Virus record (IMG/VR): IMGVR_UViG_3300047170_000049
Coordinates: 32,001 to 96,000 of that record
Length of the DNA stretch: 64,000 bases
Direction: 5' to 3' (one strand)
Source of the DNA: a virus
The notes under the pieces are model-generated. The model saw nothing but the letters and a program-made list of their open reading frames with translations, was not told the origin of the DNA and did not search any database. Of this stretch, positions 6,026 through 54,440 are shown piece by piece. The position numbers and the translations under genes are program-made. The first letter of the stretch is position 1, and every line of letters starts with the position of its first letter.

Positions 6026-6373
6026 TTGTCAAATCGGGTTTTTAACTACGGAAAGGCGAATATTACTTTAAGTGGCGTGCCGTTGCCTTCAGGAAATAAC
6101 AATATTGGGTCTATATTAAATAGTCCCGCTATTACCAACACAGGTTTTTACGTTGCCACAGTTTGGCCATACTTAGGCCATAGAGGGCCTGCTTCCATAA
6201 CGGAAACCATAAGTGATTACGGTGTTGGCTATAAAACTTATTATTATTGGATAGATATGATTGATACTGGGATTAAGCAAGAGGTAGACAACATTCAAAA
6301 TCAACTTTTTAAGCCACACGAACGATTGTTGAGTTTGGATTGCTTACCTTTAGCCGAACTACTCTTTGGATAG
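6026..6373 (+). CDS. hypothetical protein, LxxLLF C-terminal family
   Basis: Ends PLAELLFG*. Confidence 0.55.
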   Translation: MSNRVFNYGKANITLSGVPLPSGNNNIGSILNSPAITNTGFYVATVWPYLGHRGPASITETISDYGVGYKTYYYWIDMIDTGIKQEVDNIQNQLFKPHERLLSLDCLPLAELLFG

Positions 6374-6381
6374 GATTTACT

Positions 6382-6966
6382 ATGAGTAATTTTGATATTG
6401 CCACCCACGAGTTTGAATTTAAGTACGATGCGACTGGCGTTAAGCTAGGTAAATTCAAAGCATTTGCTGAAAAGCACGACCCACTTCGTTTCATTGAAGT
6501 GGCAAGCTGGGATACCTACTACGCCAATAAAGACACTAAGAGCAATATTGAATTCATGCGCTTCAGGCAAGGTCCAAGTCCAGAATTGACCATTAAATCC
6601 AAGCTTAACGAAAATAACAACAATAAGCGTATTGAGATTGACCTTCCTTTGGATAACCACCGCTTGAACGAGAGTGTGGTTAAAGCTTATTGCGATAGCA
6701 TGGGCTTTGAAGAGAACTTTAGGCTTTACAAGGTGTGCTTCATCTATTTCTACGAGAAGGTCGATATTGTTTATTACATTTCCTACAATGAAGAAATGAA
6801 GGAAGTAGGCCGCTACGTTGAAGTTGAGGCCCGTAAGGACGTTGCGTTCGACACCTCAGAAGAGGCTTGGGATGCCGTCATTCAATTTGAACAAAAACTA
6901 GCATATTTAGGAATTACTCCACAGAACCGTATGAAGAAGTCCCAATGGGAAATAAATCGAAAGTAA
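6382..6966 (+). CDS. CYTH-domain (triphosphate tunnel metalloenzyme) protein
   Basis: EFEFKY, DTYY, RFR, ELTIK, RIEIDL, YVEVEA motifs; ATG 6382 with RBS AGGA. Confidence 0.8.
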   Translation: MSNFDIATHEFEFKYDATGVKLGKFKAFAEKHDPLRFIEVASWDTYYANKDTKSNIEFMRFRQGPSPELTIKSKLNENNNNKRIEIDLPLDNHRLNESVVKAYCDSMGFEENFRLYKVCFIYFYEKVDIVYYISYNEEMKEVGRYVEVEARKDVAFDTSEEAWDAVIQFEQKLAYLGITPQNRMKKSQWEINRK

Positions 6967-7187
6967 GCCGTCGCATCAAGCGCGGCGACATTTTTAAACT
7001 AGCTAATGGCTTATTTTTAAAAGTGACTAAGATTAACAAGACCATAGACGGTACTTGGTACTCAGTTAAGCCGCTCTTCATCGAAGATGAGCCTTATGGT
7101 GTGTATGGAGAATACTTCTCTTCAAAACATATGAAGAAAGTGAAACTAAACCGCTTGGAGAAGCTTTTGCTTAAGTTGTTATTATGA
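6945..7187 (+). CDS. small SH3/KOW-like protein, LxxLL family
   Basis: IKRGDIF start; ends EKLLLKLLL*. Confidence 0.55.
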   Translation: MGNKSKVSRRIKRGDIFKLANGLFLKVTKINKTIDGTWYSVKPLFIEDEPYGVYGEYFSSKHMKKVKLNRLEKLLLKLLL

Positions 7188-7528
7188 AAAAACCAATCGA
7201 CATAAAAATAGAGCGCGTTCTTCCCTACGATAATCACATATTAGATTCCGTACATTACTTATCCAAGACGTTGGACATAAAAGACCTGGAAGAGGCTGCG
7301 CAAGCCGCTATAGCAAACATGGGCACTCCAGACCGCTTCATCTTAGACCCTCTTACGGCCAAGGCTTACGCACAAGCGGCTGGTATTGACTGGGCTTGGC
7401 ATTCATTAAAGTGGGAAAAACTCAAAGCCAAACTCCCAGGCTTACCTGAAAACATATCCGATGAGCAAATAGATGAAATGGGCCGTGCAGAAAAGAAACT
7501 AGCGAAGATTCTGTATGGGAAGACCTAA
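7184..7528 (+). CDS. hypothetical protein, LxxLLF/Y family
   Basis: Ends EKKLAKILYGKT*; ATGA overlap. Confidence 0.6.
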   Translation: MKKPIDIKIERVLPYDNHILDSVHYLSKTLDIKDLEEAAQAAIANMGTPDRFILDPLTAKAYAQAAGIDWAWHSLKWEKLKAKLPGLPENISDEQIDEMGRAEKKLAKILYGKT

Positions 7529-7784
7529 GAAGCCGCTGCATTTTCACATAGGCCAAATGCTGGTTTGCTGGCCAAATGGCAAGCTTAAGAACTTTCATTT
7601 AGTTAAGGTTACAGACTACCATTCTAATACGCATTACGATGTTATGGTTTTAAAAGGTTACGGCCATAAACCAGGTAAAATAGTTGCTTGGACCCGTCAA
7701 TTCGTGGAAGAAAATTTCTTTACATGCGATAGTGAAGAACAGGCGGCATTAATCGAAGAAATGGCCAAGGTGTTGTTTGCATAG
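7515..7784 (+). CDS. small SH3/KOW-like protein, LxxLLF family
   Basis: FHIGQML start; ends EEMAKVLFA*. Confidence 0.6.
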   Translation: MGRPKKPLHFHIGQMLVCWPNGKLKNFHLVKVTDYHSNTHYDVMVLKGYGHKPGKIVAWTRQFVEENFFTCDSEEQAALIEEMAKVLFA

Positions 7785-8025
7785 CCTATTTGACCCATCT
7801 CTTAGCATTGGTGATACTGTAATCGGCAGAGATGATTATTCAGTTTTTATAGGACAAATTGTTGACATACACGAACACGAATATGAGCTTCATTCACTAT
7901 ATGACTCCGACGGTAATTCTTGGCGTGAAGGAACTATAGAGCTTTCATTTAACTATCGTTTACATTTCCCACTACGCTTAGTCACGCCTGAAGAGCTAGA
8001 ATTATTTCGTCTATTGTTTAAATAA
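7777..8025 (+). CDS. small SH3/KOW-like protein, LxxLLF family
   Basis: LSIGDTV start; ends EELELFRLLFK*. Confidence 0.6.
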   Translation: MHSLFDPSLSIGDTVIGRDDYSVFIGQIVDIHEHEYELHSLYDSDGNSWREGTIELSFNYRLHFPLRLVTPEELELFRLLFK

Positions 8026-8087
8026 ATTCCAACCGTCCACTGCATTTTGTAATATACTTAATGTAATCAATAAAACAAGGAGTCAAA

Positions 8088-9713
8088 ATGAAACAGCCTT
8101 ACGACGTGTTTACGTCAAAATTCGCGCAGGATATTTACCTTCAAAAATACTCTAAAGATGGTGTCGAGACATGGGCGGACACCGCCAAGCGAGTTACTGA
8201 TGCAGTATGCTCACAACTGCTTGACGCCAAATCCCGTGAAAAGATTTACCACATCATTCTAGAGAGAAAATTCATTCCAGGTGGAAGATACCTTTATTCT
8301 GCAGGTAGGGAATTCCATCAAGTAAATAATTGCTTCTTATTCCGTGCAGAAGACTCACGCGAATCATGGGCTGATACCATGCAAAAAATAACGGCAAGCT
8401 TAATGACTGGTGGAGGGATTGGGGTTGAATACTCTAAGCTCCGTGCTGAAGGCGAAATAATTCGTCGTACTGGTGGAACGTCCACTGGCCCTATTGCCTT
8501 GATGAACATGGTCAATGAAGCTGGACGATACATAATGCAAGGTGGTCAGCGTCGTAGTGCTATATGGGCTGGTCTTAATTGGTCACACAAAGACGTTTCA
8601 AAATTCATTCACTTAAAAGACTACTCCGAGGCACTAAAAGGTGCGAAACTTGCTGATTTCAACTTTCCACTTCCAATGGAGTTAACCAATATATCTGTAG
8701 TCTACGACACTGAATTTTTCATTGCCGTAGAAAATGAAAACCACCCCAAGCATCAAGAAGCCCTCAAAGTCTGGTTGGATAACTGCCGACAAGCATTTTC
8801 AAGTGCTGAACCTGGTATGAGCTTTAACTTCACTAAAGATAATGAAAACCTACGCAATGCCTGCACGGAAGTAGTCTCAGAAGAGGATAGCGATAAGTGT
8901 AATCTTGGCACCATATGGATGAACCGTATTAAAGACAAAAAAGAATTAGCTGAAGTAACCAAGTATGCTACTTTATTTCTTTTGTGCGGTGGGATTTACT
9001 CAGACATTCCCACCCAACGTATTAGAGAAATTGGCGTTAAGAATAACCGTATTGGTTTAGGGTTGGGTGGAATCCACGAATGGCTTATGTCTCGTGGGTT
9101 AGAGTATGAAGTGAACCCTGAACTACACAAATGGCTTTCTATTTACGAGCAAGAATCTGACTCAGCGGCTTTCGTAGGCTCTAAACAACTTGGAGTTGCC
9201 GTCCCTAAAGGCGTGCGTGCAATTGCACCCACTGGCACTATTGGAATCATTGCTGAGACCACAACGGGCATTGAGCCTTTATTTTGCAAAGCATACAAGC
9301 GTCGTTACTTTAAAGAAGGTAAATGGATGTTCCAGTATGTAGTGGACGGTGCCGTGAAGCGTCTTCTGGACCAAGGCGTGAAAATTGAGCACATAAAAGA
9401 CTCATATGACTTAACTTTTAAGCAAAGGGTGAAATTCCAAGCCGATGTTCAAAACTATGTGGACATGGCAATTTCTTCTACTTGCAACATGCCTAAGTGG
9501 GGCTCAGAAGAAAATAGTGAGTCTAATTATGAAAAGAACGCTAATACACTACTTAAGTACGCGAAACGACTTAGGGGTTTTACCGTTTACCCAGATGAAT
9601 CTCGTGGAGGCCAGCCTTTAACGCGAGTTGACCTACAGGAAGCTCTTAAGGACGAAGGTAGGGTATTTGAAGAGACTGTAAACGAATGTATTAATGGCGT
9701 GTGTGGAATTTAA
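8088..9713 (+). CDS. nrdJ: ribonucleotide reductase, class II (B12-dependent), compact
   Basis: FIPGGRYL, NCF, GGQRRSA, NACTE, CNLG, APTGTI, ISST motifs and C-terminal CxxxxC; no beta subunit adjacent; RBS AGGAG. Confidence 0.85.
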   Translation: MKQPYDVFTSKFAQDIYLQKYSKDGVETWADTAKRVTDAVCSQLLDAKSREKIYHIILERKFIPGGRYLYSAGREFHQVNNCFLFRAEDSRESWADTMQKITASLMTGGGIGVEYSKLRAEGEIIRRTGGTSTGPIALMNMVNEAGRYIMQGGQRRSAIWAGLNWSHKDVSKFIHLKDYSEALKGAKLADFNFPLPMELTNISVVYDTEFFIAVENENHPKHQEALKVWLDNCRQAFSSAEPGMSFNFTKDNENLRNACTEVVSEEDSDKCNLGTIWMNRIKDKKELAEVTKYATLFLLCGGIYSDIPTQRIREIGVKNNRIGLGLGGIHEWLMSRGLEYEVNPELHKWLSIYEQESDSAAFVGSKQLGVAVPKGVRAIAPTGTIGIIAETTTGIEPLFCKAYKRRYFKEGKWMFQYVVDGAVKRLLDQGVKIEHIKDSYDLTFKQRVKFQADVQNYVDMAISSTCNMPKWGSEENSESNYEKNANTLLKYAKRLRGFTVYPDESRGGQPLTRVDLQEALKDEGRVFEETVNECINGVCGI

Positions 9714-9825
9714 AAATTAGTTTGCTTATTTCTTAAAGTGTGTTAAATTAAAGACTGATTGACCTCCCCTAACCCTGACATGCCTGCCCGTGGGCGGCTT
9801 TCCCCAAAGCCAACACGGGTATCGA

Positions 9826-10077
9826 ATGATTTTATTAAAGTGCATATCCGAATGCAACATCGGAAAAGAAGCTAAGAATGGGGACTGGAAGGTAGAGATG
9901 ACCTTTCACCCTGGTCAATACTATAATGCAGTTGGCCAAGGTAATACAAGTTTTAATGGCCGTTATTACGCCTTTAAAATCAAAGGTAAGGTGGTTAGGA
10001 TAATGTCAGATAACTTTGAGCCCTTAGAGGATAAGGAAGTAGCCCATTTAGCACAATTATTATTCACTGAGGATTGA
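9826..10077 (+). CDS. small beta-barrel-like protein, LxxLLF family
   Basis: Ends KEVAHLAQLLFTED*; ATG 9826 preferred over GTG 9790. Confidence 0.55.
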   Translation: MILLKCISECNIGKEAKNGDWKVEMTFHPGQYYNAVGQGNTSFNGRYYAFKIKGKVVRIMSDNFEPLEDKEVAHLAQLLFTED

Positions 10078-10102
10078 CTTTCCCGTATTAGTTTGTTATC
10101 CT
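10074..10102 (+). promoter_or_regulatory. sigma70-type promoter
   Basis: TTGACT-17-TATCCT with extended -10 TG. Confidence 0.55.
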
Positions 10103-10128
10103 GTAAGAGTAATAACTAAGGGGGTTTT

Positions 10129-10395
10129 ATGAAAACAATCGAGATGGCTCAAAAAAACGGTGTGTACGTCCCAAATGGTACGGTAGCCAATGAAAGCCGT
10201 AACTATGGCCCCTACACCCAGTTCGCCACTCCCAAACAAACCCCTAAAAACACGAAATTAGGGATTAGTTGGTATTTAAAAGAATTTTTCAAAGGTATGC
10301 TGTTTGGCTCTTTCTTCTCCTTCCTTTTTGGTGGGATTTTTGCTGGTGGCCTAATGGTGATTCCAGTGGTTATTAACAACAAGGATAAGAAATGA
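10129..10395 (+). CDS. small membrane protein
   Basis: C-terminal hydrophobic segment; RBS GGGGG. Confidence 0.55.
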   Translation: MKTIEMAQKNGVYVPNGTVANESRNYGPYTQFATPKQTPKNTKLGISWYLKEFFKGMLFGSFFSFLFGGIFAGGLMVIPVVINNKDKK

Positions 10396-10634
10396 ACATT
10401 CTTGATGAACTTAAAGACAAGATTACTGAAGTGCAGACCATCACGGTGGGGACGGATGAAATTCTTGTAATAAAACTCAGACATGACGAGGTATCTCAAG
10501 AGGAAATAAATAAAGTTCATAAAGTTTTTGAAGCCAAACTTCCTAAAACAAAGGTGTTGATTTGCGATGATTTATTTCAGTTCATTAAAATCTCTAATGA
10601 CGAGTTAAAACTCATTGACCTATTGAAGGGGTGA
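10392..10634 (+). CDS. hypothetical protein (weak LxxLL C-terminus)
   Basis: ATGA overlap; ends DELKLIDLLKG*. Confidence 0.55.
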   Translation: MNILDELKDKITEVQTITVGTDEILVIKLRHDEVSQEEINKVHKVFEAKLPKTKVLICDDLFQFIKISNDELKLIDLLKG

Positions 10635-10924
10635 ACATGGTTAAGTTCTTCAAAAATCTTTTCAAACGTAAGCCTAAATTCCAAATCTCTGACCGCTTTG
10701 CAGCCTTAATTTTTGAAGTAGCTACAGGCAACAAGGCAATGATTGCACCTGCCATTTTGGTTCACCGTGCCTATCTTAAAGAATATGGCGATAAGTACAA
10801 AAAGACCAATGAATACTTCTACATGAGCGAAGTTGATAATGTCATTCCCGACTACATCTTCAAAGCTGATGTGCGCCGTAAACTTCTTCAAAAATATGGT
10901 TCAAACGCACAAAGAAATTTTTAA
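10631..10924 (+). CDS. hypothetical protein
   Basis: Coupled ORF in operon. Confidence 0.5.
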   Translation: MNMVKFFKNLFKRKPKFQISDRFAALIFEVATGNKAMIAPAILVHRAYLKEYGDKYKKTNEYFYMSEVDNVIPDYIFKADVRRKLLQKYGSNAQRNF

Positions 10925-10981
10925 AAAATAGCCACTTTTGTGATATTAACTGAATGAGAAACAATCACAAAGGAGCTATGA

Positions 10982-11647
10982 ATGATTCCCAGTAAATTCC
11001 CTAAAGCATTAGTTGTAGAGATTGAAGGGCTTGATGGCTCTGGCAAGACCACGGGTTTAAAATACCTAGTGGAGCAACTGACCGCTAAAGGCTTTAAAGT
11101 CTTATCTACCCGCGAAGTTGGCAGTACCCATATTCCAGTGTGCGCTGACCTAAGAAAAATTGTCTTAAACCCTGAACTGACCTTGGATGGGACGACCATG
11201 GAATTCATCTTCGCAGCAATGCGTATTGAAAACCAAAAGTTCTATAAGTCAGTTGAAGAAGAGTATGATTTCATCATCTCTGACCGTGGATGGCTCAGTC
11301 ACCTTGCTTATACAGACCAAAACGTGAGTAATGAATTCACCCAAGCCTTCTACAAAGGCATTGTAGCTCCGCTAACCAAATTACCTGACAAGATTCTTTA
11401 TTTTGACATTGCACCTGCTACAGCTTTTGAGCGTATGCAAAAACGCGGTGAACTGCCTGATTCCATTGAGAAAAAAGGCGCTGTGTTTATGGAACGCGTG
11501 GCTAAGAGCTTTAAATCTCACATGATGAGCTACGGAGTATTTAGCCGTATTAGCCATGTTGATGCCAATAAGACTTTAGCAGAAGTTCAAACAGAACTGG
11601 ACGGGCACATTGAAGCTCTAGTTAAAGCCCGTGACGAAAAAGAGTAA
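10982..11647 (+). CDS. tmk: thymidylate (dTMP) kinase
   Basis: EGLDGSGKTT P-loop, TREVG, ISDR, LPD motifs. Confidence 0.9.
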   Translation: MIPSKFPKALVVEIEGLDGSGKTTGLKYLVEQLTAKGFKVLSTREVGSTHIPVCADLRKIVLNPELTLDGTTMEFIFAAMRIENQKFYKSVEEEYDFIISDRGWLSHLAYTDQNVSNEFTQAFYKGIVAPLTKLPDKILYFDIAPATAFERMQKRGELPDSIEKKGAVFMERVAKSFKSHMMSYGVFSRISHVDANKTLAEVQTELDGHIEALVKARDEKE

Positions 11648-11882
11648 GGTAATATTTTACATTGGTTTATTTCTAGTGGGCCTATCCATTGAAAGAGCGT
11701 GGGATGCCCACTTAGAGTATTGTTTAAAACTGAATTGGGTTACGGCACGAAATGCTTATCTCACTAGCTGCATTCAAGCGGTTAAAGACTTGCCTCTTAA
11801 AGGCCAGAACAAGAATTTAATCATTCGTGGCTATTGTAATAAAATGACCGATTCATACTTGGAATGGATTTATGGGAAATAA
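11631..11882 (+). CDS. small membrane/secreted protein
   Basis: N-terminal hydrophobic helix. Confidence 0.5.
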   Translation: MTKKSKVIFYIGLFLVGLSIERAWDAHLEYCLKLNWVTARNAYLTSCIQAVKDLPLKGQNKNLIIRGYCNKMTDSYLEWIYGK

Positions 11883-12645
11883 GAACTGGGCAGATTACTT
11901 TGATGTCAATAGTTTATTAACCCAAAAAGGTGGTGATGGTGGAGATACCCCCTCACATGAAGGGTTAGCTTGGTTGGCCGCTCACTTTGGTGGTAACTTT
12001 CCATCTCCATTAGGTTATGGTAATTTCATTTACGAAGTATCGCCAAATGAAAAGTTAATTCGTAACCCAATTACATACAACAACCCTAACGATACTTCTA
12101 GAGACCAATACCGTGCCGTTGTTGTGGCAGACTTCTTTCAAAACCCACACGGCTTGTTTTCGCAGGATTTTTATAAAAATCTACCCAAAAACTTCCTAGG
12201 ATGGGCTCATTACCCCAATGGTGATGTGTTTAATCCACAAGATTACGTCTTGTTTCACCCAAATGCAAATTATGCTTGGAAGCTCCTCAGTGATGTAATG
12301 GCGCTCTTTGGCGTACTCACTTTGGTGTGCTGGACAACTCGTAAGCCTGGGTTTATCACTAAAGCCCTTGGTAAGCTATGGTGGCCCTTCATTGCAATGA
12401 ATCCACCTAATAATCAAGGTGTTCAAGGGTCTTTGCGTGGCCCCGATTACACATCAGATGATTTAGGTACGATTGAAACGCTGTTGTATTCAAAATACAA
12501 CGGTACATTCTTAAATAAACTTAACAGATGGATTTATAGAACCTTTCGACCTAATGGTGTTCAATGGGCTTTAGATTCTTACTTTGCAGAAGACATTGCA
12601 CCACCAATTAACGAAATCTCTCAAGGCATGGTGAAAGAATTATGA
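11872..12645 (+). CDS. hypothetical protein
   Basis: 257-aa coupled ORF with one hydrophobic segment. Confidence 0.6.
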   Translation: MGNKNWADYFDVNSLLTQKGGDGGDTPSHEGLAWLAAHFGGNFPSPLGYGNFIYEVSPNEKLIRNPITYNNPNDTSRDQYRAVVVADFFQNPHGLFSQDFYKNLPKNFLGWAHYPNGDVFNPQDYVLFHPNANYAWKLLSDVMALFGVLTLVCWTTRKPGFITKALGKLWWPFIAMNPPNNQGVQGSLRGPDYTSDDLGTIETLLYSKYNGTFLNKLNRWIYRTFRPNGVQWALDSYFAEDIAPPINEISQGMVKEL

Positions 12646-14347: not shown

Positions 14348-14565
14348 CCGATTTATTTTGGATTGTGTGGGCTGGAATTTCACTTTTTAACGTAATGTTG
14401 GTGGGGCACGAATATGCTTCACAGATTAGACGTGATGGTGAGGTTGTTGGGTTTAAGTGTGTTGCAGGGGTTTTATTTGCCCCGTTCTTTTTGGCTTTCA
14501 CGATAGGCTACCGCATCAAAAAATTCCCTAAATTCAAAGTTTCTATTCAAAAGGACAACACATGA
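14344..14565 (+). CDS. small membrane protein
   Basis: Two hydrophobic segments. Confidence 0.5.
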   Translation: MTDLFWIVWAGISLFNVMLVGHEYASQIRRDGEVVGFKCVAGVLFAPFFLAFTIGYRIKKFPKFKVSIQKDNT

Positions 14566-15134
14566 AAACTTGGTTCACTAGCGATACCCACTTTGGCCAC
14601 TTGAACGTCATTAATTATTGCAAACGCCCATTCACTGGCATTGAGCATATGAATGCAGAGATGGTGCGTCTTTGGAATGAGACTGTGGCTCCTGAAGATA
14701 CCGTTTACTTTCTGGGTGATTTTTCACTGGGCAAACAAGCGGTGGTAGAGATTTTACCTAAGCTCAATGGCATAAAACACTTGATTGCGGGTAACCACGA
14801 CCGTTGTCACCCAGCACACGCCAAGAAAGAAGCTAAGATTGCAGCTATGACCCAGTGGTACTTGGAAATGGGCTTTGCGACCGTTCAATTGGAACTTAAG
14901 ATTAATATTGCAGGCCACTCAGTGAAACTTCACCACATGCCCTATAGCGGTGACCATACGGAGATGGAACGCTATGGTAAGTACCGTCCTAAGAATGAAG
15001 GCGACTGGCTTCTTTGCGGTCACGTCCACGACCTTTTCAAGATTAAGGGTAAGCAAATTAACGTAGGCGTTGATGTTTGGGACTTTAAACCCGTAAGCTC
15101 AGAACAAATTGCAGAGATTATTAATGGAGCATAA
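14562..15134 (+). CDS. calcineurin-like metallophosphoesterase
   Basis: SDTHFGH, LGDF, GNHD, HHMP, GHVH, NVGVD. Confidence 0.9.
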   Translation: MKTWFTSDTHFGHLNVINYCKRPFTGIEHMNAEMVRLWNETVAPEDTVYFLGDFSLGKQAVVEILPKLNGIKHLIAGNHDRCHPAHAKKEAKIAAMTQWYLEMGFATVQLELKINIAGHSVKLHHMPYSGDHTEMERYGKYRPKNEGDWLLCGHVHDLFKIKGKQINVGVDVWDFKPVSSEQIAEIINGA

Positions 15135-15477
15135 AAAAGGCGATGTCTTTTGGATGCGAAGGAAATCTGCCATTGGTGGCGCGCCTAAGAATTTCATGCG
15201 CATTATCCAGCTAGACGGCAATCCAAGACTGACAAATTTAGCTCAATACGACAGTGAGTATCTTTACAACATAGTGCATTTACGGCATTACTCAAATAAT
15301 CCACATAGAGTCAAAAAGGTAGCTTCAGAACATGATTTGGATTCTTTTTGGATTAAAATGAGCGATGACGAAGCATATTTGGCAAAATTATTATTTCAAG
15401 TTTTAGACTTTAAAGAGTATGAAGAGACTTCAAGAATTAGGGCTGGTCAATTTTTAAAAAAGATAGGGGTAATATGA
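15109..15477 (+). CDS. SH3-like protein with internal LxxLLF motif (probable start ATG 15124)
   Basis: KKGDVFW; DEAYLAKLLFQ. Confidence 0.55.
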   Translation: MQRLLMEHKKGDVFWMRRKSAIGGAPKNFMRIIQLDGNPRLTNLAQYDSEYLYNIVHLRHYSNNPHRVKKVASEHDLDSFWIKMSDDEAYLAKLLFQVLDFKEYEETSRIRAGQFLKKIGVI

Positions 15478-16578: not shown

Positions 16579-17142
16579 ATGAAATTCAGTATCAAAGACC
16601 CAAATCGCCTGAACTACTTCCGCTGCATGGACTGTCTGTCCACGATGACTTCTTACGAAACCCCAGTAATGTGCGCTTGTGATGGTTTACTTGTACCGAT
16701 GGGTCAGGTTTACGACAAGCATTACGGTGAAGAAGTTGTGCGCCCTGCTTGTGACGGACGTTGCACCCACTCCGCTGGCCCGATTTGCACATGCAAATGT
16801 GGTGGTGCCAATCATGGTACTGGCAAATTAGTCAAAACCGTGGTAATTAATGGTGTGGTTAAAGTAACTGAAGTTGACGCAGATGCTCATAAACGTGCTC
16901 AAGAATGGCGTGAAGCTTTTAACGCTGCCCGTGACCGTTTTGAAAAACACCTGGCCGCTCCTTTCAATGAGATGGTAGCAAACCAAGGCAAGGTTAACAA
17001 TGTTCAATTTTGGACCATTCGCCGCGCCTATAGCAGTGGCAAGTTCCACTTAAGCAAAATATCTCAAATGAAAGTACACAAGGCACGCATGGAGGCAGCA
17101 AAAACTGCCTTCCCCGTTCCTTTGGAGGTTGTCAATGAGTAA
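16579..17142 (+). CDS. Cys-rich Zn-binding protein
   Basis: CMDC, CAC, CDGRC...CTCKCGGANHG; RBS AGGAG. Confidence 0.7.
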   Translation: MKFSIKDPNRLNYFRCMDCLSTMTSYETPVMCACDGLLVPMGQVYDKHYGEEVVRPACDGRCTHSAGPICTCKCGGANHGTGKLVKTVVINGVVKVTEVDADAHKRAQEWREAFNAARDRFEKHLAAPFNEMVANQGKVNNVQFWTIRRAYSSGKFHLSKISQMKVHKARMEAAKTAFPVPLEVVNE

Positions 17143-17368
17143 TGTAGCGTTTAGAAGGTCAAGAATTAATAGGGTAATTGAAAAGAAAGCTATTAGCGAA
17201 GATGTGTCAGTTAACAAGGGGGATTTGGTTCAAGTTATTAATGTAGGTAAAGGCACCATAAGATGTAAGCCTGTTAAAACCCCTGATTATGTAGTCGATT
17301 TTGAAGTTGCTGATTTAGAGCACTTAACTAAGGAAGAGAACGAATTAGCAAATTTATTGTTTGGATAA
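17129..17368 (+). CDS. SH3-like protein, LxxLLF family (probable start ATG 17135)
   Basis: VNKGDLVQV; ends EENELANLLFG*. Confidence 0.65.
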   Translation: MSMSNVAFRRSRINRVIEKKAISEDVSVNKGDLVQVINVGKGTIRCKPVKTPDYVVDFEVADLEHLTKEENELANLLFG

Positions 17369-46722: not shown

Positions 46723-46992
46723 CTAGTGAAAAAGTAATCCATATAGTTCTTTTGTTTCAGTATCCCAATTACAACGCTCAAACCAACTTGGTGGAAATGG
46801 TGGTGTTTCACCGTAGTCAGTGTAGACCGACACATATCCACTAAACTTCACACTGCGAATCTGATATAAGCGATTCACAATTAGCCCTTCTTGTGCGTAA
46901 AGGGCACCGGAGGTATTGAACATCCAATCTCCAACAAATATTACCCATTCGCCAATCTTCAACGGGCTCAAATCATTCTTCGGCATACTCAT
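46723..46992 (-). CDS. SH3/KOW-like protein, LxxLLF family
   Basis: LKIGEWV; ends ETKELYGLLFH*. Confidence 0.6.
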   Translation of the reverse strand: MSMPKNDLSPLKIGEWVIFVGDWMFNTSGALYAQEGLIVNRLYQIRSVKFSGYVSVYTDYGETPPFPPSWFERCNWDTETKELYGLLFH

Positions 46993-47017: not shown

Positions 47018-47260
47018 TCAACTAAATAAAAGGCGTGCCAGTTCGAGTTCTTCCATCTTATTGAGATTAGGCAGCTTTTTCATAGGAGGGATATAATCGC
47101 CAAATTGAATTTTGATGCGCCGTTCGTCTTCTGTAAGGTAGACGCGGTTAACCCAGGCATCTCCTTTATCTAGGTGAAGGCGCGACAAGATAGTTCCTTG
47201 TGTGATTCTTTCACCAGTTTTTAAACTAATGTGTTCACCTAATACGAAGTAGGATTTCAT
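47018..47260 (-). CDS. small protein, LxxLLF family
   Basis: FVLGEHI; ends EELELARLLFS*. Confidence 0.6.
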   Translation of the reverse strand: MKSYFVLGEHISLKTGERITQGTILSRLHLDKGDAWVNRVYLTEDERRIKIQFGDYIPPMKKLPNLNKMEELELARLLFS

Positions 47261-47979
47261 CGGACGTAATCAATTACCGTAATTGGATTACCAGGGAAGT
47301 AGGTCTCATCGCAAATTGCCGCGTTATAGTAGCTAACTCCGTCCTTATGTACTTGAGTTCCACCAGGAGTATGGATATGGCCAAAGATGTGCAAATCAAG
47401 TTCTTTGAGTTGCTTGATTCTATCCATTAAATCCATGCAGCCTAAGTGCTCATCACGCAAGGTGCCATCAGCGTAACTCGTTTGGTCGAGAATACCGTAA
47501 GGAGGTCCATGAGTAATTAAGATATGAGTGTTATCTGGGATAGCTTTCCAATGTGGTACAATAGGCTCTGCAGGCTTCATTTTGCCGTAGCCACAATTTT
47601 CCATACGACGCAAATGACCGCGAGCACGATTCCAAGCCCAGTTAAAGAAGAAAGGTTGAACGGGTGAACCGTAAAAATTAATACCTTCGATTGTTACAGC
47701 TTGGTCTATAAGAAGATGGGCTCTAGGGCATATGTCCGTAAACCACTTAAGACTATCGGGCATGAATTTTTCAAAAGTCTTTTCGTGATTACCTGGAATA
47801 AGAACTATGTGACGAGCTTGGGTTTGTGCGTTCATCCATGTAGCGAACGCTTCAACTTCGTGCTTGTCACCGTGACCAGACCAATCCCCAGCATGGATTA
47901 AAAAATCACACTCGGGAATTACAATTTTATTATGTCGATTATGTGTGTCGCTAATTGCTACGATTTTAAATTGACTCAT
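47257..47979 (-). CDS. metallophosphoesterase (MPPED-like)
   Basis: SDTH, HAGD, PGNHE, THGPP, FGHIH. Confidence 0.9.
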   Translation of the reverse strand: MSQFKIVAISDTHNRHNKIVIPECDFLIHAGDWSGHGDKHEVEAFATWMNAQTQARHIVLIPGNHEKTFEKFMPDSLKWFTDICPRAHLLIDQAVTIEGINFYGSPVQPFFFNWAWNRARGHLRRMENCGYGKMKPAEPIVPHWKAIPDNTHILITHGPPYGILDQTSYADGTLRDEHLGCMDLMDRIKQLKELDLHIFGHIHTPGGTQVHKDGVSYYNAAICDETYFPGNPITVIDYVR

Positions 47980-48202
47980 CTTTTCGCTCCAACCAAGTAA
48001 GAAGACCTGCTATAATCATGTTAGGGCCAGTGCTCAAAGCGCCTACGATTAATTCATAAAGAATAAATCCACCAAGCATCTGGTGCCAATTTTGAGGTTG
48101 TGGAGGCTGCATCATCATTACCGCTCCGAGGGGGAATGAGCCTACGATAGTTAAAAAGTAACAAATGCTAAACCATCGGGACCATCGCTTAATATGCTTC
48201 AT
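47966..48202 (-). CDS. small membrane protein
   Basis: Two hydrophobic helices. Confidence 0.55.
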
Positions 48203-49053
48203 ACTGACACCTTGCCTTTGATTGGTGGGTGATGTTGATAACCGTCTAGGAAAATGTCTGTGATTTTAAAGTCATCAATGTTGGTAATTAATTTATTAAG
48301 CCTGAGCGTTGGGAGTTCTTTTGGAAGACGGGTCATTTGCTCTTTGATTTGGTCAATGTGATTATTGTAAATATGAACGTCGCCAAAGGTGTGTACGAGT
48401 TCGCCCACTTCTAATCCTACAACTTGAGCAATCATGTGGGTGAGTAGTGCGTAAGAGGCGATGTTGAATGGAACACCTAAGAACGTATCGGCACTGCGCT
48501 GATACATCTGACAAGAAAGCTTACCGTTGGCCACATAGAATTGAAAGAATGCGTGACATGATGGTAGGGCTTGGTCTTTAACTTGGTTTGGATTCCAGGC
48601 CGTAACAATCATGCGGCGTGAATCTGGGTTTGTCTTAAGTTGCTCAATAACGTCTTTAATTTGGTCCGTGCCACGGCTACTAGGCCATGCAAAGTTATTT
48701 TTAATGCCATGATAGTCACCATCAAAGTGACGCCATTGGAAGCCATATACGGGGCCTAGGTCACCTTTTTCGTCGGCCCACTCATCCCAAATATGAACGT
48801 TATTATCTACAAGGTATTGGATGTTGGTATCGCCTTTAAGCATCCATAGAAGCTCATGGGCTACGCCGTGAAACCAAACCTTCTTTGTGGTAAGTATTGG
48901 GAATCCTTTAGCTAAATCAAAACGCATTTGATGCCCGAAAAGGCTTATCGTACCAGTTCCAGTACGGTCGTTCTTTTTATTACCTTCGCGTAAAATCTTA
49001 TCACAAAGCTCTAAGTATTGAACATCAACGTGGTTTGCTGGAAAAATCTCCAT
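48199..49053 (-). CDS. thyA: thymidylate synthase
   Basis: [44 protein letters not shown]. Confidence 0.97.
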
Positions 49054-49142
49054 AATCTCTTACCTCTTAAACTTTAATACCACATTATTTCCAAAAGTAT
49101 GGTATATTTTTATTAAGGCACCAGGTTATATCGAAAGCTGAG

Positions 49143-49391
49143 GTGTCTATGATGACTGAAGTAGGGCCTGTACTGAAAAAAGGCGATTTGATTTTTAACA
49201 AACGCTCAGGCGAATTAATGCGCATGGTGGGTAGTGACAAAGACTTATATTGCCATTTTAGAATTGGCTTGGAAAACAACCAGCCTATGTTTGTATTATC
49301 AATATTAGACGTACTTAATGGCATTAACAAAGGGGAGTTATTCCCAGTGGACGAACAAGAAAAAGAACTTTACCAAACTCTGTTCAAATGA
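49143..49391 (+). CDS. SH3/KOW-like protein, LxxLLF family
   Basis: LKKGDLI; ends EKELYQTLFK*. Confidence 0.6.
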   Translation: MSMMTEVGPVLKKGDLIFNKRSGELMRMVGSDKDLYCHFRIGLENNQPMFVLSILDVLNGINKGELFPVDEQEKELYQTLFK

Positions 49392-49615
49392 TTAAAATTG
49401 GGACATATCTATACCAAAAGAATTCTGGTCGCGGGACTGTCTATGAAGTCATATGGATTAATACGAAAAATAATTCTATTTTTTTAAGAAGCTTAAATGA
49501 TAAAAGTAAGGGTCAACTCATTTTAAGCACGGTCAAAGAGGCGGTGAATGATGGCATGATGGGTGTCGTTAGTCACAAATCGAGAAGACTTGCGCAACTT
49601 CTTTACGGCAAATAA
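49388..49615 (+). CDS. SH3/KOW-like protein, LxxLLY family
   Basis: IKIGTYL; ends RRLAQLLYGK*. Confidence 0.6.
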   Translation: MIKIGTYLYQKNSGRGTVYEVIWINTKNNSIFLRSLNDKSKGQLILSTVKEAVNDGMMGVVSHKSRRLAQLLYGK

Positions 49616-49644
49616 AAACCCCTGATATTTCTACCAGGGGTTTT
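49615..49644. terminator. bidirectional intrinsic terminator
   Basis: AAAACCCCTG-N10-CAGGGGTTTT between convergent genes. Confidence 0.75.
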
Positions 49645-49668
49645 CGGAAACTATCTTAACTACTTAGA

Positions 49669-49983
49669 TTAGAACTGAATGGGTGCTTGTGGAAGGAGAG
49701 GTCGTAATTGAATATACAAATCTCCGACTACGGCTGCAGAAGGTTTAGTTCCTGCAGTTACACACTTTTCAAAGCTTGCATTCCCAGCGGTAGCTGGAAT
49801 GTGAACAAGAAGGTCGTTCACTTGTAAGCTTGAGAAGTCATGAGTGGCACTTACGTTCGTCGCAACAATCATTCCAACAAATTGTGAAGAACTATTAATA
49901 GCGTTTACAACTTCTTGGCCATCTTGTACGCGGTGAGCGATTCCAGTGGCTAATGCTTTCGCGGCTTCTTTTGATAAACTCAT
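49669..49983 (-). CDS. putative capsid decoration protein
   Basis: Directly after major capsid gene; RBS GGAGG. Confidence 0.5.
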   Translation of the reverse strand: MSLSKEAAKALATGIAHRVQDGQEVVNAINSSSQFVGMIVATNVSATHDFSSLQVNDLLVHIPATAGNASFEKCVTAGTKPSAAVVGDLYIQLRPLLPQAPIQF

Positions 49984-49995
49984 CGTCGCCTCCGA

Positions 49996-51378
49996 TTAAC
50001 TGTTACGGAGGTTGTCGATAAGGATATTGAAGCGAGGAAGTTTAACAACTGTAGCGCAGAATCTAAAGCTAACTTTAGGAATGCTGAGGTCAGTCATAGC
50101 AAGTTGCATTGACTTGTAAGGGCTGAGTTCAGCAATTTCAAGACCGCGCATATCTAACATAAACCCAGTAACGAAACCAGGGGTTTTGTTATTGAGGTCG
50201 ATGAAAGCAGTGGTAGCTCCACCAGAGTTAACTACTCGACCAATCCAACGTAAGCTGCTTCCACCTGCATCTGAACGATACATATTGAAGTGCTTGGCGA
50301 AAACGCCTGAAGCTGGGGTGATGGTAGCAGTTACGCTATTGCCAGAAGCACCAATTGTGATGGGGCTAATAGCAGTTGCAGGGGATTCACCAATTTCGTT
50401 AACTGCAGTACAAAAGTATTGATAAACTTCGTTTGCGTTGAAAGAGGTTGTTCCTGCAGCTTGTGCAAGAGCGATGGTAGGGCTGTTAGGAGCACCGATA
50501 CGGGGACGGGCTACTGCAGTTTTACCAGAGAGGAAACGGCTTGATTCGATGCTAACAACTGAATCAGCTACTGCTTGCTCTTTCAAGCTTGCACCAGTTG
50601 ATTGTTGAGGGCTTCCTGCGAGAACGATACGTTCTTTGGGGAAAGCAATCTTGTTATAAGCGCCGTGTGTCAAGGGGTCAATGTACAATTTCTCAGGAGA
50701 ACCGTGGTTCATAGCAGCTTGTGCATATGAATCTTCGATGATTCCTTGAGAAAGGATACCGTTCTGGTTGAATACGATTGATTTGTTTGAACCGTACTCA
50801 TTGAACATTAAGTCTTGTGTTGAAGACAAATAATCTGATTGACGAATTTGGGGGTCAAGACCTTGCATTCCAGGGGTTGTTGACATTGCGAGGGGGTTAC
50901 CGTCGAAAACGCCAGCATTGCTGAAAGCTTCTTTACCACGGAATACTTCAAATTCGATGTCGCCAGCGATTTTCAATGCACTGTCTGCTTCAGCGCGGTC
51001 TTCGGATTTAACTCCGTCGAAAGCTTGAATCATTGTGGATTGAACAGTCACTCTACGAACTTCAGCGTAGTATGCCATGGGCACCACTGAACGAACATAG
51101 CTTGAGGTTTGTTCTTGTCCGACAGAGCCTTCAAGCACTGCAGAACCACCGAACACACCGTAATCAAGTTGACGGTTGAATTGTACTAAGGTCCCCTTAG
51201 CTGGGTTCACCTTAAGAAGCTTTTGCAACTTAATGTGTTTATCTTCGTAGGTAGCAACGTTCATTACAGGAGAAAGGTCTTCCATCTGTAATGCGCTACC
51301 TTGGTTTAGAGCACTGGGGGATACGTTATATCCACCTGCTTCTAAAGCTTTTTTAAGGGCTTCTAATTGTTCAATCAC
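49996..51378 (-). CDS. major capsid protein
   Basis: LKKA|LEAG...GSALQMEDL N-terminus and Ig-like insertion (YFCTAVNEIGES), as in SPO1/K-like MCPs; order portal-protease-scaffold-MCP. Confidence 0.9.
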   Translation of the reverse strand: MIEQLEALKKALEAGGYNVSPSALNQGSALQMEDLSPVMNVATYEDKHIKLQKLLKVNPAKGTLVQFNRQLDYGVFGGSAVLEGSVGQEQTSSYVRSVVPMAYYAEVRRVTVQSTMIQAFDGVKSEDRAEADSALKIAGDIEFEVFRGKEAFSNAGVFDGNPLAMSTTPGMQGLDPQIRQSDYLSSTQDLMFNEYGSNKSIVFNQNGILSQGIIEDSYAQAAMNHGSPEKLYIDPLTHGAYNKIAFPKERIVLAGSPQQSTGASLKEQAVADSVVSIESSRFLSGKTAVARPRIGAPNSPTIALAQAAGTTSFNANEVYQYFCTAVNEIGESPATAISPITIGASGNSVTATITPASGVFAKHFNMYRSDAGGSSLRWIGRVVNSGGATTAFIDLNNKTPGFVTGFMLDMRGLEIAELSPYKSMQLAMTDLSIPKVSFRFCATVVKLPRFNILIDNLRNS

Positions 51379-51380
51379 GG

Positions 51381-52226
51381 TTATGACTCCTTCTCAATAA
51401 GTTTTAAGATAGTTTCTTTACCCTTTTTATGAAGGTAAAAATCTACGATACTGTCTCGTTCGTTCTTAGTTAATGTGGGCTTACGGCTAATGGAAGTTAA
51501 CTTAGCGTGAATTTCCTTATCCGTTAGAGGCTTCTTGTCTTCAGATTTTTGAAGACTGCCTTCGCCTGGTTTAGCAACATGATTAATGTCAGTCACAGCT
51601 TTGCGAACTGGCTTGTTAATCATCTTCTCGAAAAGCTCTGTAACTTTTTCGAGACCAGCTTGAAGCTTCTTGGTTTCAGTCTCAGACTTAGCAAGCTTCT
51701 GTTCTAATTCTTCAACCTTAGCGTTATCCTTTTCAGACATTTGCAAAGGTGCAGATGCTGAGGGGGATGGTGCAGGGGCTGCAGGACTAGCTGAACCCAT
51801 ATCTGCAGGAGCGGCTTCTGGAGATGGAGATGAGCGTTTAGCCATTTCCATTTTGCATTTTTCCATAAGGTCCTGGAGTTTTTCGGGGTCAAGGTCAGCT
51901 AAGAGTTCTTCTAAGCTGCCAAAGTCTTGGTCTTGTTGACTGTCACTTGCTTCAGGTGAAGCAGGTGGAGTTGCGCTTGAATCAGAAGCTTCAGGAGAAG
52001 GTGCAGGGGCAGAAGCACTTGCATCGTCTTTCTTCATTGACTCTTCTTTTTCTTTTGAAGATTCTTCTTTGGATTTTTCTTTGGAAGATTCTTCTTTCTT
52101 AGCGAGTTCGGCAGCTTCAGCTTTTTTAAGCTCTTCTGCCTTATCCGTTTCTTTCTTGATTAACACGTCAAGTTCGCCAATGGCTTCCTTAACGAGTTTC
52201 TCAAGGTCAATTTTTGGTGTATCCAT
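51381..52226 (-). CDS. capsid scaffolding-like protein
   Basis: E/K/S-rich coiled coil with many LxK[S/A/K]E sites, upstream of MCP. Confidence 0.7.
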   Translation of the reverse strand: MDTPKIDLEKLVKEAIGELDVLIKKETDKAEELKKAEAAELAKKEESSKEKSKEESSKEKEESMKKDDASASAPAPSPEASDSSATPPASPEASDSQQDQDFGSLEELLADLDPEKLQDLMEKCKMEMAKRSSPSPEAAPADMGSASPAAPAPSPSASAPLQMSEKDNAKVEELEQKLAKSETETKKLQAGLEKVTELFEKMINKPVRKAVTDINHVAKPGEGSLQKSEDKKPLTDKEIHAKLTSISRKPTLTKNERDSIVDFYLHKKGKETILKLIEKES

Positions 52227-52271
52227 TTTCTCTTCCTCTTATTAGTTAAAGTAAAACTAACTGCTTCCCTA

Positions 52272-52727
52272 TTATTGACCAGAACCTGGCCATTTGTAGT
52301 CGCCGACTTTGGCAACAAGGTTAGCGGGGAGGATTTCAGCGGTTGATGGAACTGAACCATTCGCGCCGAGATAACGTTCTTGATACACGCCTAATTGAGC
52401 AAGGTCCCAGTCGATTAAAGATTTAACTGAGCTAGCAACAATGGAATGTCCAGAGTCAGTGTCAGATTCTTCAACGATTTGGAGTTTGCTTGGGCTGTAG
52501 ACTTGTTGAGGGCTGCCGATACTGTCCAAAAATGGAGTGTCGAAAGGAACAATGCGAATTAGCATGTTGTTCTGACCTGCAGTAGGGGTGGCACTTTGTG
52601 ACACAGACAAGATAGCACCAGAAGCATCAGTCGATTGACTGAATGTATAGCTGGGAAGACGTAATGAAAGTCTTTCTTGGAGGTCACGAGCGAGGGCTTG
52701 TTGTTTTGCAATTTGTAAAAGGGACAT
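52272..52727 (-). CDS. putative head structural protein
   Basis: First gene after late promoter in capsid operon; RBS AGGAG. Confidence 0.6.
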   Translation of the reverse strand: MSLLQIAKQQALARDLQERLSLRLPSYTFSQSTDASGAILSVSQSATPTAGQNNMLIRIVPFDTPFLDSIGSPQQVYSPSKLQIVEESDTDSGHSIVASSVKSLIDWDLAQLGVYQERYLGANGSVPSTAEILPANLVAKVGDYKWPGSGQ

Positions 52728-52777
52728 CTTTTATTCTCCTTATTTAAAAATAACTAGTTACTAGAGATATTACCTTT

Positions 52778-52808
52778 ATTAAGATATTTCCCTAAGTTCT
52801 TAAAATGA
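52778..52808 (-). promoter_or_regulatory. late promoter motif copy 10 (variant)
   Basis: ATTAAGATAT-TTCCC-TAA-GTTCT-TAAAAT. Confidence 0.6.
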
Positions 52809-53768
52809 TTAATGTTTTTTAGAATTATTCAATTTCGCGTAAATTTCCATAGCTTCTGCCTCGTTAGCGGCATAGAGCTTGTTGGCTAGCACAGCTTCCA
52901 CTTTTTCTAAGTTCTCCTCAGATAGGGTAGGAAGATGTTTTCGCATTTCAGTACGGGTTAGCTTCTTTTTCTTGAAAATTTTCACTAACTTAGCTAACTC
53001 AGTATCGAGTCCTTCCTTTTGCAAGGCAGGCCCACTTGAGAGGGCTGAGGGAGTGGCACCCATTCCACCAGCGGAGATTGCCTTTTTAAGTCCGCTGAGG
53101 GCATTGGATAGCTGTGCATATTGGTCAGGTCGTACTGAGTCCTGAATTATATACACTTCATTGTAAGCCGATTTGTGCAAGGATTCGTGGCCACCATTGG
53201 CAGTCGAGTAATCCATAGACTTGCGGACTCCTTGGTGGGATTCCTGCACAAATTCAACTTTGGCGGCTCTATTACAAGGCTTGTGCGTTAGCGCAAGTCT
53301 ACGAATAGCCGTTTCTTTTAAAAGATTTCCTTCACGTTTAACTGTAGAACCTTCAACGCTAAAGCCAAGTTGTTGTTCAACCCCAGCCGATTCAAAGTTG
53401 CGTATAATAGATGCGGCAGCTTTGGCGTTTGGATGATTCTCGTCATCAAAGATTTCTACTTGGCCCCAAATGAGTGGGACCTTGAGTTTCTTAAATGCTT
53501 GTAATTCTTGCTTATTTGAGCAATCTTTTTCGCTAAAGATTTTCTTAGCGTTCATGACCCTACCGACGATAGACTGAAAGCCTTCAAAGCCTTTGTTTTT
53601 CTCATCTTTTAGGTCTTCTGGGTTGATATGCTCCGTATTAACTAGAGCCTTTCCTGAACGTAGCTCTTCTATGTCAGCACCCTTAACATCTAGGACTTCG
53701 CCTGAAGTATCGGGGGTTTGCGCTGAAAAGACACCAGCCAGTATTAGATTTTTCTTAAGGTCACTCAT
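52809..53768 (-). CDS. prohead maturation protease
   Basis: DTSGE, NTEH, GFSVEG, ALTHKPCN motifs of HK97/U35-like proteases. Confidence 0.85.
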   Translation of the reverse strand: MSDLKKNLILAGVFSAQTPDTSGEVLDVKGADIEELRSGKALVNTEHINPEDLKDEKNKGFEGFQSIVGRVMNAKKIFSEKDCSNKQELQAFKKLKVPLIWGQVEIFDDENHPNAKAAASIIRNFESAGVEQQLGFSVEGSTVKREGNLLKETAIRRLALTHKPCNRAAKVEFVQESHQGVRKSMDYSTANGGHESLHKSAYNEVYIIQDSVRPDQYAQLSNALSGLKKAISAGGMGATPSALSSGPALQKEGLDTELAKLVKIFKKKKLTRTEMRKHLPTLSEENLEKVEAVLANKLYAANEAEAMEIYAKLNNSKKH

Positions 53769-53777
53769 ACTAACAAA

Positions 53778-53808
53778 ATTAAGATTTTAAGCTAAATACT
53801 TGATTTAA
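53778..53808 (-). promoter_or_regulatory. late promoter motif copy 11
   Basis: ATTAAGATTT-TAAGC-TAA-ATACT-TGATTT. Confidence 0.75.
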
Positions 53809-53834
53809 TTAAAGTTAAATGCCTTAAATTCTTA

Positions 53835-53862
53835 TTGACACTAATACGGGATGTGGTAATAT
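53835..53862 (+). promoter_or_regulatory. sigma70-type promoter
   Basis: TTGACA-16-TAATAT with extended -10 TG. Confidence 0.55.
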
Positions 53863-53895
53863 TAATGAATAGCGACTTAAACAAAGGGGATTAAA

Positions 53896-54153
53896 GTGTA
53901 TCTTACAAGAATTTTAGACTTAGGTGTTTGGAAGACCGTAGCGACCGTTATCAACCCAATTGGTCAATTTCGTAGCGCCTTAACCTTAGAACAAAAGCGC
54001 CGCGTGGTATCCATTGGCAAGAATATTGATATTGATAAGAAAATTGAAGCCGCTCAATTATGGGCTATCGCCCGTGAATCAACTGACCAAGAACTGCGTA
54101 AAATGCAAGCCGCAATCAAAGTAGTAGTAGAGCATAAAAACAAGGATTTATAA
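53896..54153 (+). CDS. hypothetical protein
   Basis: RBS AGGGG after sigma70 promoter. Confidence 0.55.
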   Translation: MYLTRILDLGVWKTVATVINPIGQFRSALTLEQKRRVVSIGKNIDIDKKIEAAQLWAIARESTDQELRKMQAAIKVVVEHKNKDL

Positions 54154-54440
54154 TGGGTTCTTCTAAATTAGGCATGGCTAGATTTTGGCCTTCCGTAAAA
54201 AATGAAGAACCTAAAGCACCTCAAGTTGTCATACCTAAAATAATTCACATAACGGATTATGAATATTACGACTCACATGAGGTAATTCTAGCGGTTACAT
54301 TTAAGGACCAAACGATACACCATTGCGAACCGCAACAACAGCATAAGTGTCACGAATTGATGGCACAATGGGCAAAGTCAATTATAGGTCCTAGTGAATC
54401 TGAAGAGATGAAATTGCACGACTTACTTTTTTGTAAGTGA
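54153..54440 (+). CDS. small protein, LxxLLF family
   Basis: Ends EEMKLHDLLFCK*. Confidence 0.6.
   Translation: MGSSKLGMARFWPSVKNEEPKAPQVVIPKIIHITDYEYYDSHEVILAVTFKDQTIHHCEPQQQHKCHELMAQWAKSIIGPSESEEMKLHDLLFCK

Follow-up and report, generated by a model that had tools for sequence, protein, structure and literature searches.

The virus record IMGVR_UViG_3300047170_000049 is a single contig of 159,288 bp with 42% GC that is rated 100% complete, and the stretch analysed here (the window) comprises its bases 32001-96000, 64,000 nucleotides in all. A preliminary description of the window had named about 14 divergent mini-proteins, by the starts of their open reading frames (ORFs), as sharing a C-terminal helix, which we call the tail, and had proposed a possible system of modular adaptors that recruit host proteins to one hub. 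All 14 C-termini exist at the ORFs named, and the set proved far larger than that number: a tail-profile scan found about 50 tailed ORFs of 56-122 amino acids (aa) among the approximately 245 ORFs of the genome.

The record codes for a portal protein and a capsid protein, the latter 29% identical to the capsid of Myxococcus phage Mx1 (Mx1), together with a DnaE-type polymerase, a DnaB-like helicase, a GroEL-like chaperonin, a PDZ protein and a sigma factor. Neither megablast nor tblastn with two of the tailed proteins matched a cultured phage relative. In a close relative the gene for a Phi812-type tail-tube protein adjoins the array of tailed genes, and on this gene content the phage appears to have a contractile virion tail. 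Where genomes have to be told apart below, the record under study is G000 and its nearest IMG/VR relative G001.

A C-terminal helix shared by small orphan proteins

In the crude gene set of the window (94 ORFs, 20,416 residues), the pattern L..[LIVMT]L[FY] lies at most 4 aa from the C-terminus in 10 ORFs, and only 4 further matches occur elsewhere in these residues. In 2000 trials with shuffled residues the mean count was 0.11 and the highest 3, and the enrichment over a shuffled control on which the preliminary description hung is thereby confirmed. Matches to the tail profile above 4.5 bits all lie at most 8 aa from a C-terminus, apart from one spurious ORF and the ORF at 15109, which holds the only strong match away from a C-terminus. 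None of the ORFs longer than 135 aa, the DnaE-type polymerase included, ends in the core motif.

The consensus was drawn from 72 tails, pooled from the phage under study and one relative, and reads [RK]-x-L-[TSD]-x-[ED]-E-x-x-L-[AYF]-x-[LV]-L-[YF]-X-stop, with a helix of about 13 residues. Information content reaches 2.9 bits at L1, 2.2 at L4, 3.4 at L5 and 3.65 at Y/F6. The aromatic residue, which is Phe in 25 of the 72, is followed by exactly one residue before the stop in 53, and most tails end in G, E, D, A, S or K. The tails are acidic, with E or D at position -4 in 44 of them and E at position -3 in 40. By established helix-capping rules, the T/S/D-x-x-E start and the frequent final Gly would be ordinary helix caps, and helical geometry predicts an N-capped amphipathic helix with a hydrophobic arc formed by positions 1, 2, 4, 5 and 6.

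A C-terminal amphipathic helix that ends near -L-F-G could also be a membrane-targeting device, anchoring the proteins to the inner membrane in the manner of MinD or FtsA. Known bacterial membrane-targeting helices are basic, however, and the acidic character of the tails leaves this reading extremely improbable.

No family could be assigned to the tailed proteins from Pfam or PHROGs, save one PHROG of unknown function for a single member. A degenerate DNA pattern for the tail had no match in IMG/VR, a word-indexed protein search matched only 7 proteins, and the tail profile found no PDB chain at E<10 except noise. Literature searches returned no publication describing this tail.

Selection on the tail and the overlap of neighbouring genes

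Two observations bear on whether the peptide or its nucleotides are conserved. All six Leu codons are in use at L1, L4 and L5 of the tails, and at conserved residues compared between the phage and its relative, synonymous differences amount to 46% for the tail as compared with 51% for the body (p=0.49). Since synonymous change is not lower in the tail, the peptide is the object of selection; codon comparison thus shows selection on the tail at the protein level. A DNA-level recombination cassette as the source of the tails was ruled out, as their codons are too diverse.

The genes nevertheless sit in arrays in which neighbours share 8 or 11 nt between the start of the second gene and the stop of the first. 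One array extends from 156.5 kb across the record ends to 4.8 kb and forms a single continuous block in the related phage. The tail might then be a by-product of translational coupling, its codons being kept as the Shine-Dalgarno sequence, spacer and start of the next gene. Consistent with such a role, 21 of 27 Tyr tails hold the ATG of the next gene inside TAT-G, and among 20 Phe tails 16 are without an overlapping start and 4 give a TTG start (Fisher p=1e-4 for Tyr/Phe against overlap). The codon preceding L-L in arrays is usually GAG, AAG or AGG and therefore Shine-Dalgarno-like, although over the whole genome Glu is more often encoded by GAA (1494 against 535 for GAG). In the phage lineage L026, the gene coordinates and proteins imply 11-nt overlaps, endings of the form VLYG-x and a next protein that begins M-E-N.

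Coupling accounts for only the last three to four residues, however. The L-x-x-L-L-F pattern is retained in tails without a downstream overlap, the aromatic residue is kept in every gene arrangement, and neither the use of all six Leu codons nor the undiminished synonymous change is what conserved signals in the DNA would leave. Moreover, a need for the ATG alone would give no reason to favour TAT over CAT, AAT or GAT. As the sole cause of the tail, coupling is already largely refuted, and we consider it very improbable. On the predicted gene boundaries, dual coding holds for the last residues of the tail only. There the tails offer a clean case of overlapping genes fixing a residue, with Tyr or Phe chosen according to whether an ATG, a TTG or no start is embedded.

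Tailed genes of the window

The tailed genes of the window lie on both strands and are collected with their neighbours in Table 1.

Table 1 Tailed proteins and neighbouring genes. Positions are those of the window, and scores are those of the tail profile.
Feature	Position	Strand	Length (aa)	Head strand	Tail sequence	Score (bits)	Remarks
PDZ protein	5190-5921	+
Tailed mini-protein	6026-6373	+	115		ends LPLAELLFG	8.4	Longest ORF, start uncertain; 1 aa after Phe
Weak variant	6945-7187	+	80	RGDIFKL	ends LEKLLLKLLL		No aromatic; under tail-profile cut-off
Tailed protein	7184-7528	+	114		ends EKKLAKILYGKT	11.0
Tailed mini-protein	7515-7784	+	89	FHIGQML	ends EEMAKVLFA
Tailed mini-protein	7777-8025	+	82	LSIGDTV	ends VTPEELELFRLLFK	15.3
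Nucleotide metabolism	8088-9713	+
Tailed protein	9790-10077	+	95		ends KEVAHLAQLLFTED	12.0	Longest ORF; 3 aa after Phe
Weak variant	10392-10634	+	80		ends NDELKLIDLLKG	5.5	No aromatic
Nucleotide metabolism	10982-11647	+
Nucleotide metabolism	14562-15134	+
Internal-motif protein	15109-15477	+	122		SDDEAYLAKLLFQ, 26 aa before end	15.0
Tailed mini-protein	17129-17368	+	79	VNKGDLV	ends LTKEENELANLLFG	16.7	Best profile match
Tailed mini-protein	46723-46992	-	89	LKIGEWV	ends TETKELYGLLFH	11.4
Tailed mini-protein	47018-47260	-	80		ends MEELELARLLFS	13.1	In minus-strand gene run
Nucleotide metabolism	47257-49053	-
Tailed mini-protein	49143-49391	+	82	LKKGDLI	ends EQEKELYQTLFK	13.0
Tailed mini-protein	49388-49615	+	75	IKIGTYL	ends SRRLAQLLYGK	8.4
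Tailed protein	54153-54440	+	95	No head motif	ends SEEMKLHDLLFCK	11.3	No Pfam match
Co-chaperonin-like ORF	62511-62792	-	93				GroES/gp31-type by eye
Sigma factor	62783-63772	-					Pfam Sigma70_r3

Several of the endings can be compared with orthologues in the related phage. The orthologue of 6026 ends LQETLFG, and even the weak variant at 6945 has a counterpart that keeps the ending LEKLLLKILL. Between 7184 and its orthologue the last 45 residues are nearly identical and the N-terminal part is about 45% identical. The protein at 7515 ends VLFA, with the next gene starting at a TTG inside TTT-G, and its orthologue ends MAALLYG; the pair fits a Tyr/Phe choice set by the overlap. No overlapping gene follows 17129, and none follows 49388, where Tyr is encoded by TAC. 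A metagenomic homologue of 46723, P0032, retains the tail.

The tailed genes are intermixed with genes of nucleotide metabolism, comprising ribonucleotide-reductase-like and thymidylate-synthase-like genes recognised by eye and a thymidylate kinase and a metallophosphatase recognised by Pfam; the thymidylate-synthase-like gene belongs to the minus-strand run that holds 47018. This company suggests early or middle rather than late expression of the tailed genes. A strict pattern for sigma-28-like promoters gave 5 sites against 2.3 expected, none of them preceding a tail array.

Variable heads and more than one kind of body

The N-terminal parts (heads) had been described as not obviously alignable, and this is a fair description: once the tail is cut off, only 3 of 28 members are recovered by a leave-one-out profile at E<1e-3, a number that rises to 9 of 28 when E<0.05 is allowed. 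A first strand of SH3/KOW type had also been noted in many of them. This head motif was scored as Φ-x(1-2)-G-[DEQT]-x-Φ near the N-terminus. It occurs in 32 of the 50 tailed ORFs, as against 10 of 102 other small ORFs (p=7e-12), and 18 of the 50 are without it.

Other bodies carry the tail as well. One tailed ORF has a CxxCxGxG finger, which matches Pfam DnaJ_CXXCXGXG at E=2.6e-4 without reaching the curated cut-off, and finger mini-proteins with tail-like ends occupy the equivalent place in the relative L025. The AlphaFold2 (AF2) model of 7184-7528 consists entirely of helices, and at a predicted local distance difference test score (pLDDT) of only 48 it suggests that this body is probably all-α and not a barrel. 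In the phage lineage L028, positions 2113-2502 (L028:2113-2502) encode a bL12-like protein that matches Ribosomal_L12 over residues 61-112 with 36 bits, above the Pfam cut-off, and that carries a 17-residue extension ending ASEMFKVLHGD, which is the version of the tail found in that phage. The tail is thus present on more than one kind of body.

Recurrence of the tail in other phage lineages

In a close relative, Logan SRR29078101 (loci L021-L024), identity to the phage under study is 78-94% for structural proteins but only 29-72% for the tailed proteins, and genes have been gained and lost. It carries extra copies, with about 40 tails in one 11-kb array between the tail-fibre and tail-tube genes. 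The heads are evolving very fast.

The C-terminal core Φ-x-x-Φ-L-[YF] is enriched in five further lineages with a GC content of 32-43%: rel1 (27 observed against 1.7 expected), L026 (8 against 1.7), L028 (7 against 1.6), L029 (6 against 0.9) and L018 (4 against 0.3), in the last of which 7 of 7 genes are tailed. Variants of the ending in more distant uncultured phages include E-L-x-R-L-I-Y-G in L029, E-M-x-x-V-L-Y-[GED] in L028, A-x-V-L-Y-G in L026 and L-A-x-L-F-Y-G-K in L019. These comparisons show that the tail recurs with lineage-specific variants across several uncultured phage lineages.

It is not universal among the relatives. In G001 the core is not enriched (3 against 4 expected) and no tail is present, and the head-plus-tail profile finds no family member in Mx1. 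At positions 68037-69091, G001 has a tandem array of its own, with five small paralogues that start MKKRK and end LYKGIKYYEET.

Candidate partners encoded by the phage

A tail shared by so many proteins invites a search for a protein that might read it. The complete genome has no match to the sliding-clamp families PF00712, PF02768 and PF09116, and none to the proteasome-like ring family PF00227. Three other candidates occur in tail-less relatives too, ClpP in G000, G001 and Mx1, the PDZ protein in G000 and G001, and GroEL in Mx1, and so none of them tracks the tails. The GroEL-like chaperonin of the record (L004:4464-6278, genome 100464-102278) is 40% identical to that of Mx1.

The PDZ gene lies directly upstream of the tail cluster at 6026-8025, and its product has an apparent N-terminal segment resembling a membrane anchor, a linker rich in Ala, Lys and Glu, and a C-terminal PDZ domain. 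The tails were rejected as PDZ ligands: a hydrophobic last residue would be expected, and the tails mostly end in G, E, D, A, S or K; the tail-less G001 has the PDZ protein too. An ssrA-type degron was likewise set aside, as tails end -LL[YF]-X, with X often charged, and do not match the non-polar, -LAA-like ending of such degrons. Elsewhere in the genome (122259-124278), a 335-aa AAA protein resembling Cdc48/p97-D2 (L005:6259-7266) is separated by one small ORF from a downstream ClpP-family protease (L005:7589-8278). No canonical aromatic pore loop is visible in the AAA protein, and the pair is kept in the relatives L024 and L025.

A second ATPase, of the MoxR type (AAA_5), adjoins a DUF2201 protein with an invariant HExxH…H motif and a metal site of the form DxSxS (L005:12880-15342, genome 128880-131342). 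Tail genes lie on either side of the two genes in this phage and in L025, L026, L028 and L029, both tail-less relatives lack DUF2201 with AAA_5, and all four of the sampled DUF2201 contigs (39-68% identity) are tailed. These contigs were sampled through DUF2201 itself, however, and shared ancestry explains the link equally well; DUF2201 is also widespread in N4-like and jumbo phages. We regard MoxR/DUF2201 as a lead to a possible reader of the tail and not as evidence for it.

Mimicry of the transcription machinery found no footing either. E. coli segments for the first helix of sigma-70 region 4.2 and the flap-tip helix of the RNA polymerase beta subunit score 0.5 and 2.2 bits on the tail profile, which is the background level (maximum 3.6 bits in 81,000 residues). 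The sigma factor of the phage stops just after an apparent first helix of region 4.2 and contains, 23 aa before its C-terminus, the sequence ESNELLNVLYS, which resembles the tail weakly (3.9-8.4 bits). The co-chaperonin-like ORF of Table 1 lies just downstream of it. Immediately upstream of the DnaE gene, an open frame at genome positions 110539-110820 (+) that has no clear start codon ends in a sequence that resembles the helix-turn-helix of region 4.2 (IIAVLLCISVEEVQGHFQSSVEKLRKAF).

Tails might instead bind one another, giving homo-oligomers or mixed oligomers with no separate hub. The broad hydrophobic face of the amphipathic helix would suit such bundling, and no larger phage protein is clearly tailed, the stretch near the end of the sigma factor being the sole candidate. 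About 50 paralogues that share a single interface would cross-react, however, and interfaces of paralogues usually diverge, and we judge bundling improbable.

Comparison with known systems

The nearest precedent is found in phage T4, where the C-termini of gp43, gp55 and gp33 bind the sliding clamp gp45 and act as portable, interchangeable tails (Geiduschek and Kassavetis 2010, PMC2988020). The likeness is that phage proteins with nothing else in common end in a short peptide of hydrophobic and acidic character, and by sequence a peptide of this kind is present here. The differences are several. T4 has three tailed proteins against about 50 here; its DNA polymerase carries a tail, whereas the DnaE-type polymerase of the present phage does not; and T4 encodes its own hub, whereas no clamp gene that could serve as the receptor of a T4-type tail is apparent in this genome.

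The tails also resemble the endings of certain AAA+ partners. The HbYX motif (hydrophobic-Tyr-X) of proteasome activators and the C-terminal tail of HslU are borne by AAA+ ATPases and activators. The hydrophobic-Tyr/Phe-X arrangement at a free C-terminus is matched by the L-[YF]-X-stop of 53 of the 72 tails, though Phe takes the place of Tyr in 25 of the 72 and is evidently as acceptable. Unlike HbYX, the tails here are found on small proteins and not on the AAA proteins of the phage, and a ring receptor of the proteasome or HslV type was not found in its genome.

In poxviruses, ankyrin-repeat proteins recruit the Skp1-cullin machinery through a C-terminal PRANC/F-box-like domain. By analogy, that family too combines variable heads with a constant C-terminus, fast divergence and the gain and loss of copies. 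The poxvirus proteins differ in having eukaryotic hosts, a folded constant domain of about 50 residues and a known hub, whereas here the constant part is a 13-residue helix.

One shared partner or one expanded fold

Our tentative preference, with a confidence a little short of even, is that the tail is a portable handle which plugs variable heads into one shared partner. This is favoured by the portability of the tail, by a terminal helix that stays very strongly conserved although the heads are hypervariable, and by the T4 precedent.

Several observations weigh against this handle. One tailed member, folded by AF2 with 28 paralogues as the alignment, gave a compact model of a small barrel followed by the C-terminal helix, at a pLDDT of 83 overall and 76-82 in the helix blocks. 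Matches to the whole model, helix included, are KapB, PWWP, the MRG15 chromo barrel and OapB. In KapB, PWWP and the MRG15 chromo barrel such a helix packs on the barrel. The tail helix follows directly after the last strand of the body with no flexible linker. The tail of T4 gp55 is preceded by a divergent flexible linker of about 17 residues (PMC2988020), which has no counterpart here. Head motif and tail strongly co-occur, and one ancestral domain is thus the simplest origin of most copies. The case for other bodies consists of one Pfam match above the cut-off, in a relative, one below it and one low-confidence model, and the search among phage-encoded candidates identified no partner.

A structural reading is kept alive by the missing linker, by the model of barrel plus helix and by the strong co-occurrence of head and tail. 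In this reading all or nearly all tailed proteins stem from one small domain, the helix is the end of that expanded family and caps its barrel, with no common partner, and the remaining bodies arose by extreme divergence or as occasional chimeras. Tandem arrays, which indicate duplication, are in keeping with it, and the only two ORFs outside the training set that match the head profile at E<=1e-3 both have a degenerate tail. Against it stands the conservation of the helix, which far exceeds that of any strand of the core, L5 and Y/F6 standing at 3.4-3.65 bits while the heads are barely recognisable. The bL12-like protein of L028, the CxxCxGxG fingers and a body with a predicted all-α fold carry the tail as well, and by helical geometry its hydrophobic arc would be wider than a single packing face needs. 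We consider the structural reading somewhat unlikely. A helix integral to a common paralogous fold was what the preliminary description held would count against its proposal, and this was half found, in that about two thirds of the members share the head signature and one model joins barrel and helix.

As for the heads themselves, the barrel of the model resembles KOW, Tudor and SH3-like domains (Z 5.2-6.6, Foldseek E about 0.01). The earlier guess of an SH3/KOW-like fold therefore agrees with the model of one member and finds no echo in any sequence family. The likeness to SH3-like small barrels with a C-terminal helix is that of this single model; membership of a Pfam or PHROG family is not seen by sequence, and Z values below 8 may reflect a common arrangement only.

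A possible library of adaptors

Under the reading of the tail as a shared handle, the gene set would have multiplied mainly by tandem duplication into arrays. The heads would then have diverged very fast, about two thirds keeping the SH3/KOW/Tudor-like barrel signature and the rest being other small bodies. The variable heads may bind differing targets, and the constant helix would bring them to one shared partner, of host or phage origin. If that partner were a protease or unfoldase, the tail could act as a degron or as an adaptor dock.

The bolder extension, which comes close to the original proposal, is a library of about 50 quickly diversifying mini-binders, among them SH3-like barrels, zinc fingers and helical bodies, plugged by the helix into a single hub, so that many host proteins are captured, remodelled or destroyed; the hub could be, for instance, a host protease or unfoldase, or the phage MoxR ATPase with its VWA/metallopeptidase partner. 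We hold this to be doubtful, with a chance well below that of the handle as such. The enriched C-terminal motif, protein-level selection, variable heads and several bodies all speak for the adaptor proposal; a phage-encoded clamp or proteasome ring to receive the tails was not found.

Even on the modest reading, the tailed proteins form a multigene family whose size and speed of evolution are unusual in a phage. About one fifth of the genes of this phage are orphans without a family, and the shared tail offers the sole way of approaching them. Should all tails dock on a single partner, some 50 proteins would be placed in one pathway and a takeover machine of large phages would be identified; if the adaptor library is real, it would be the counterpart in bacterial viruses of the poxvirus ankyrin/F-box adaptors.

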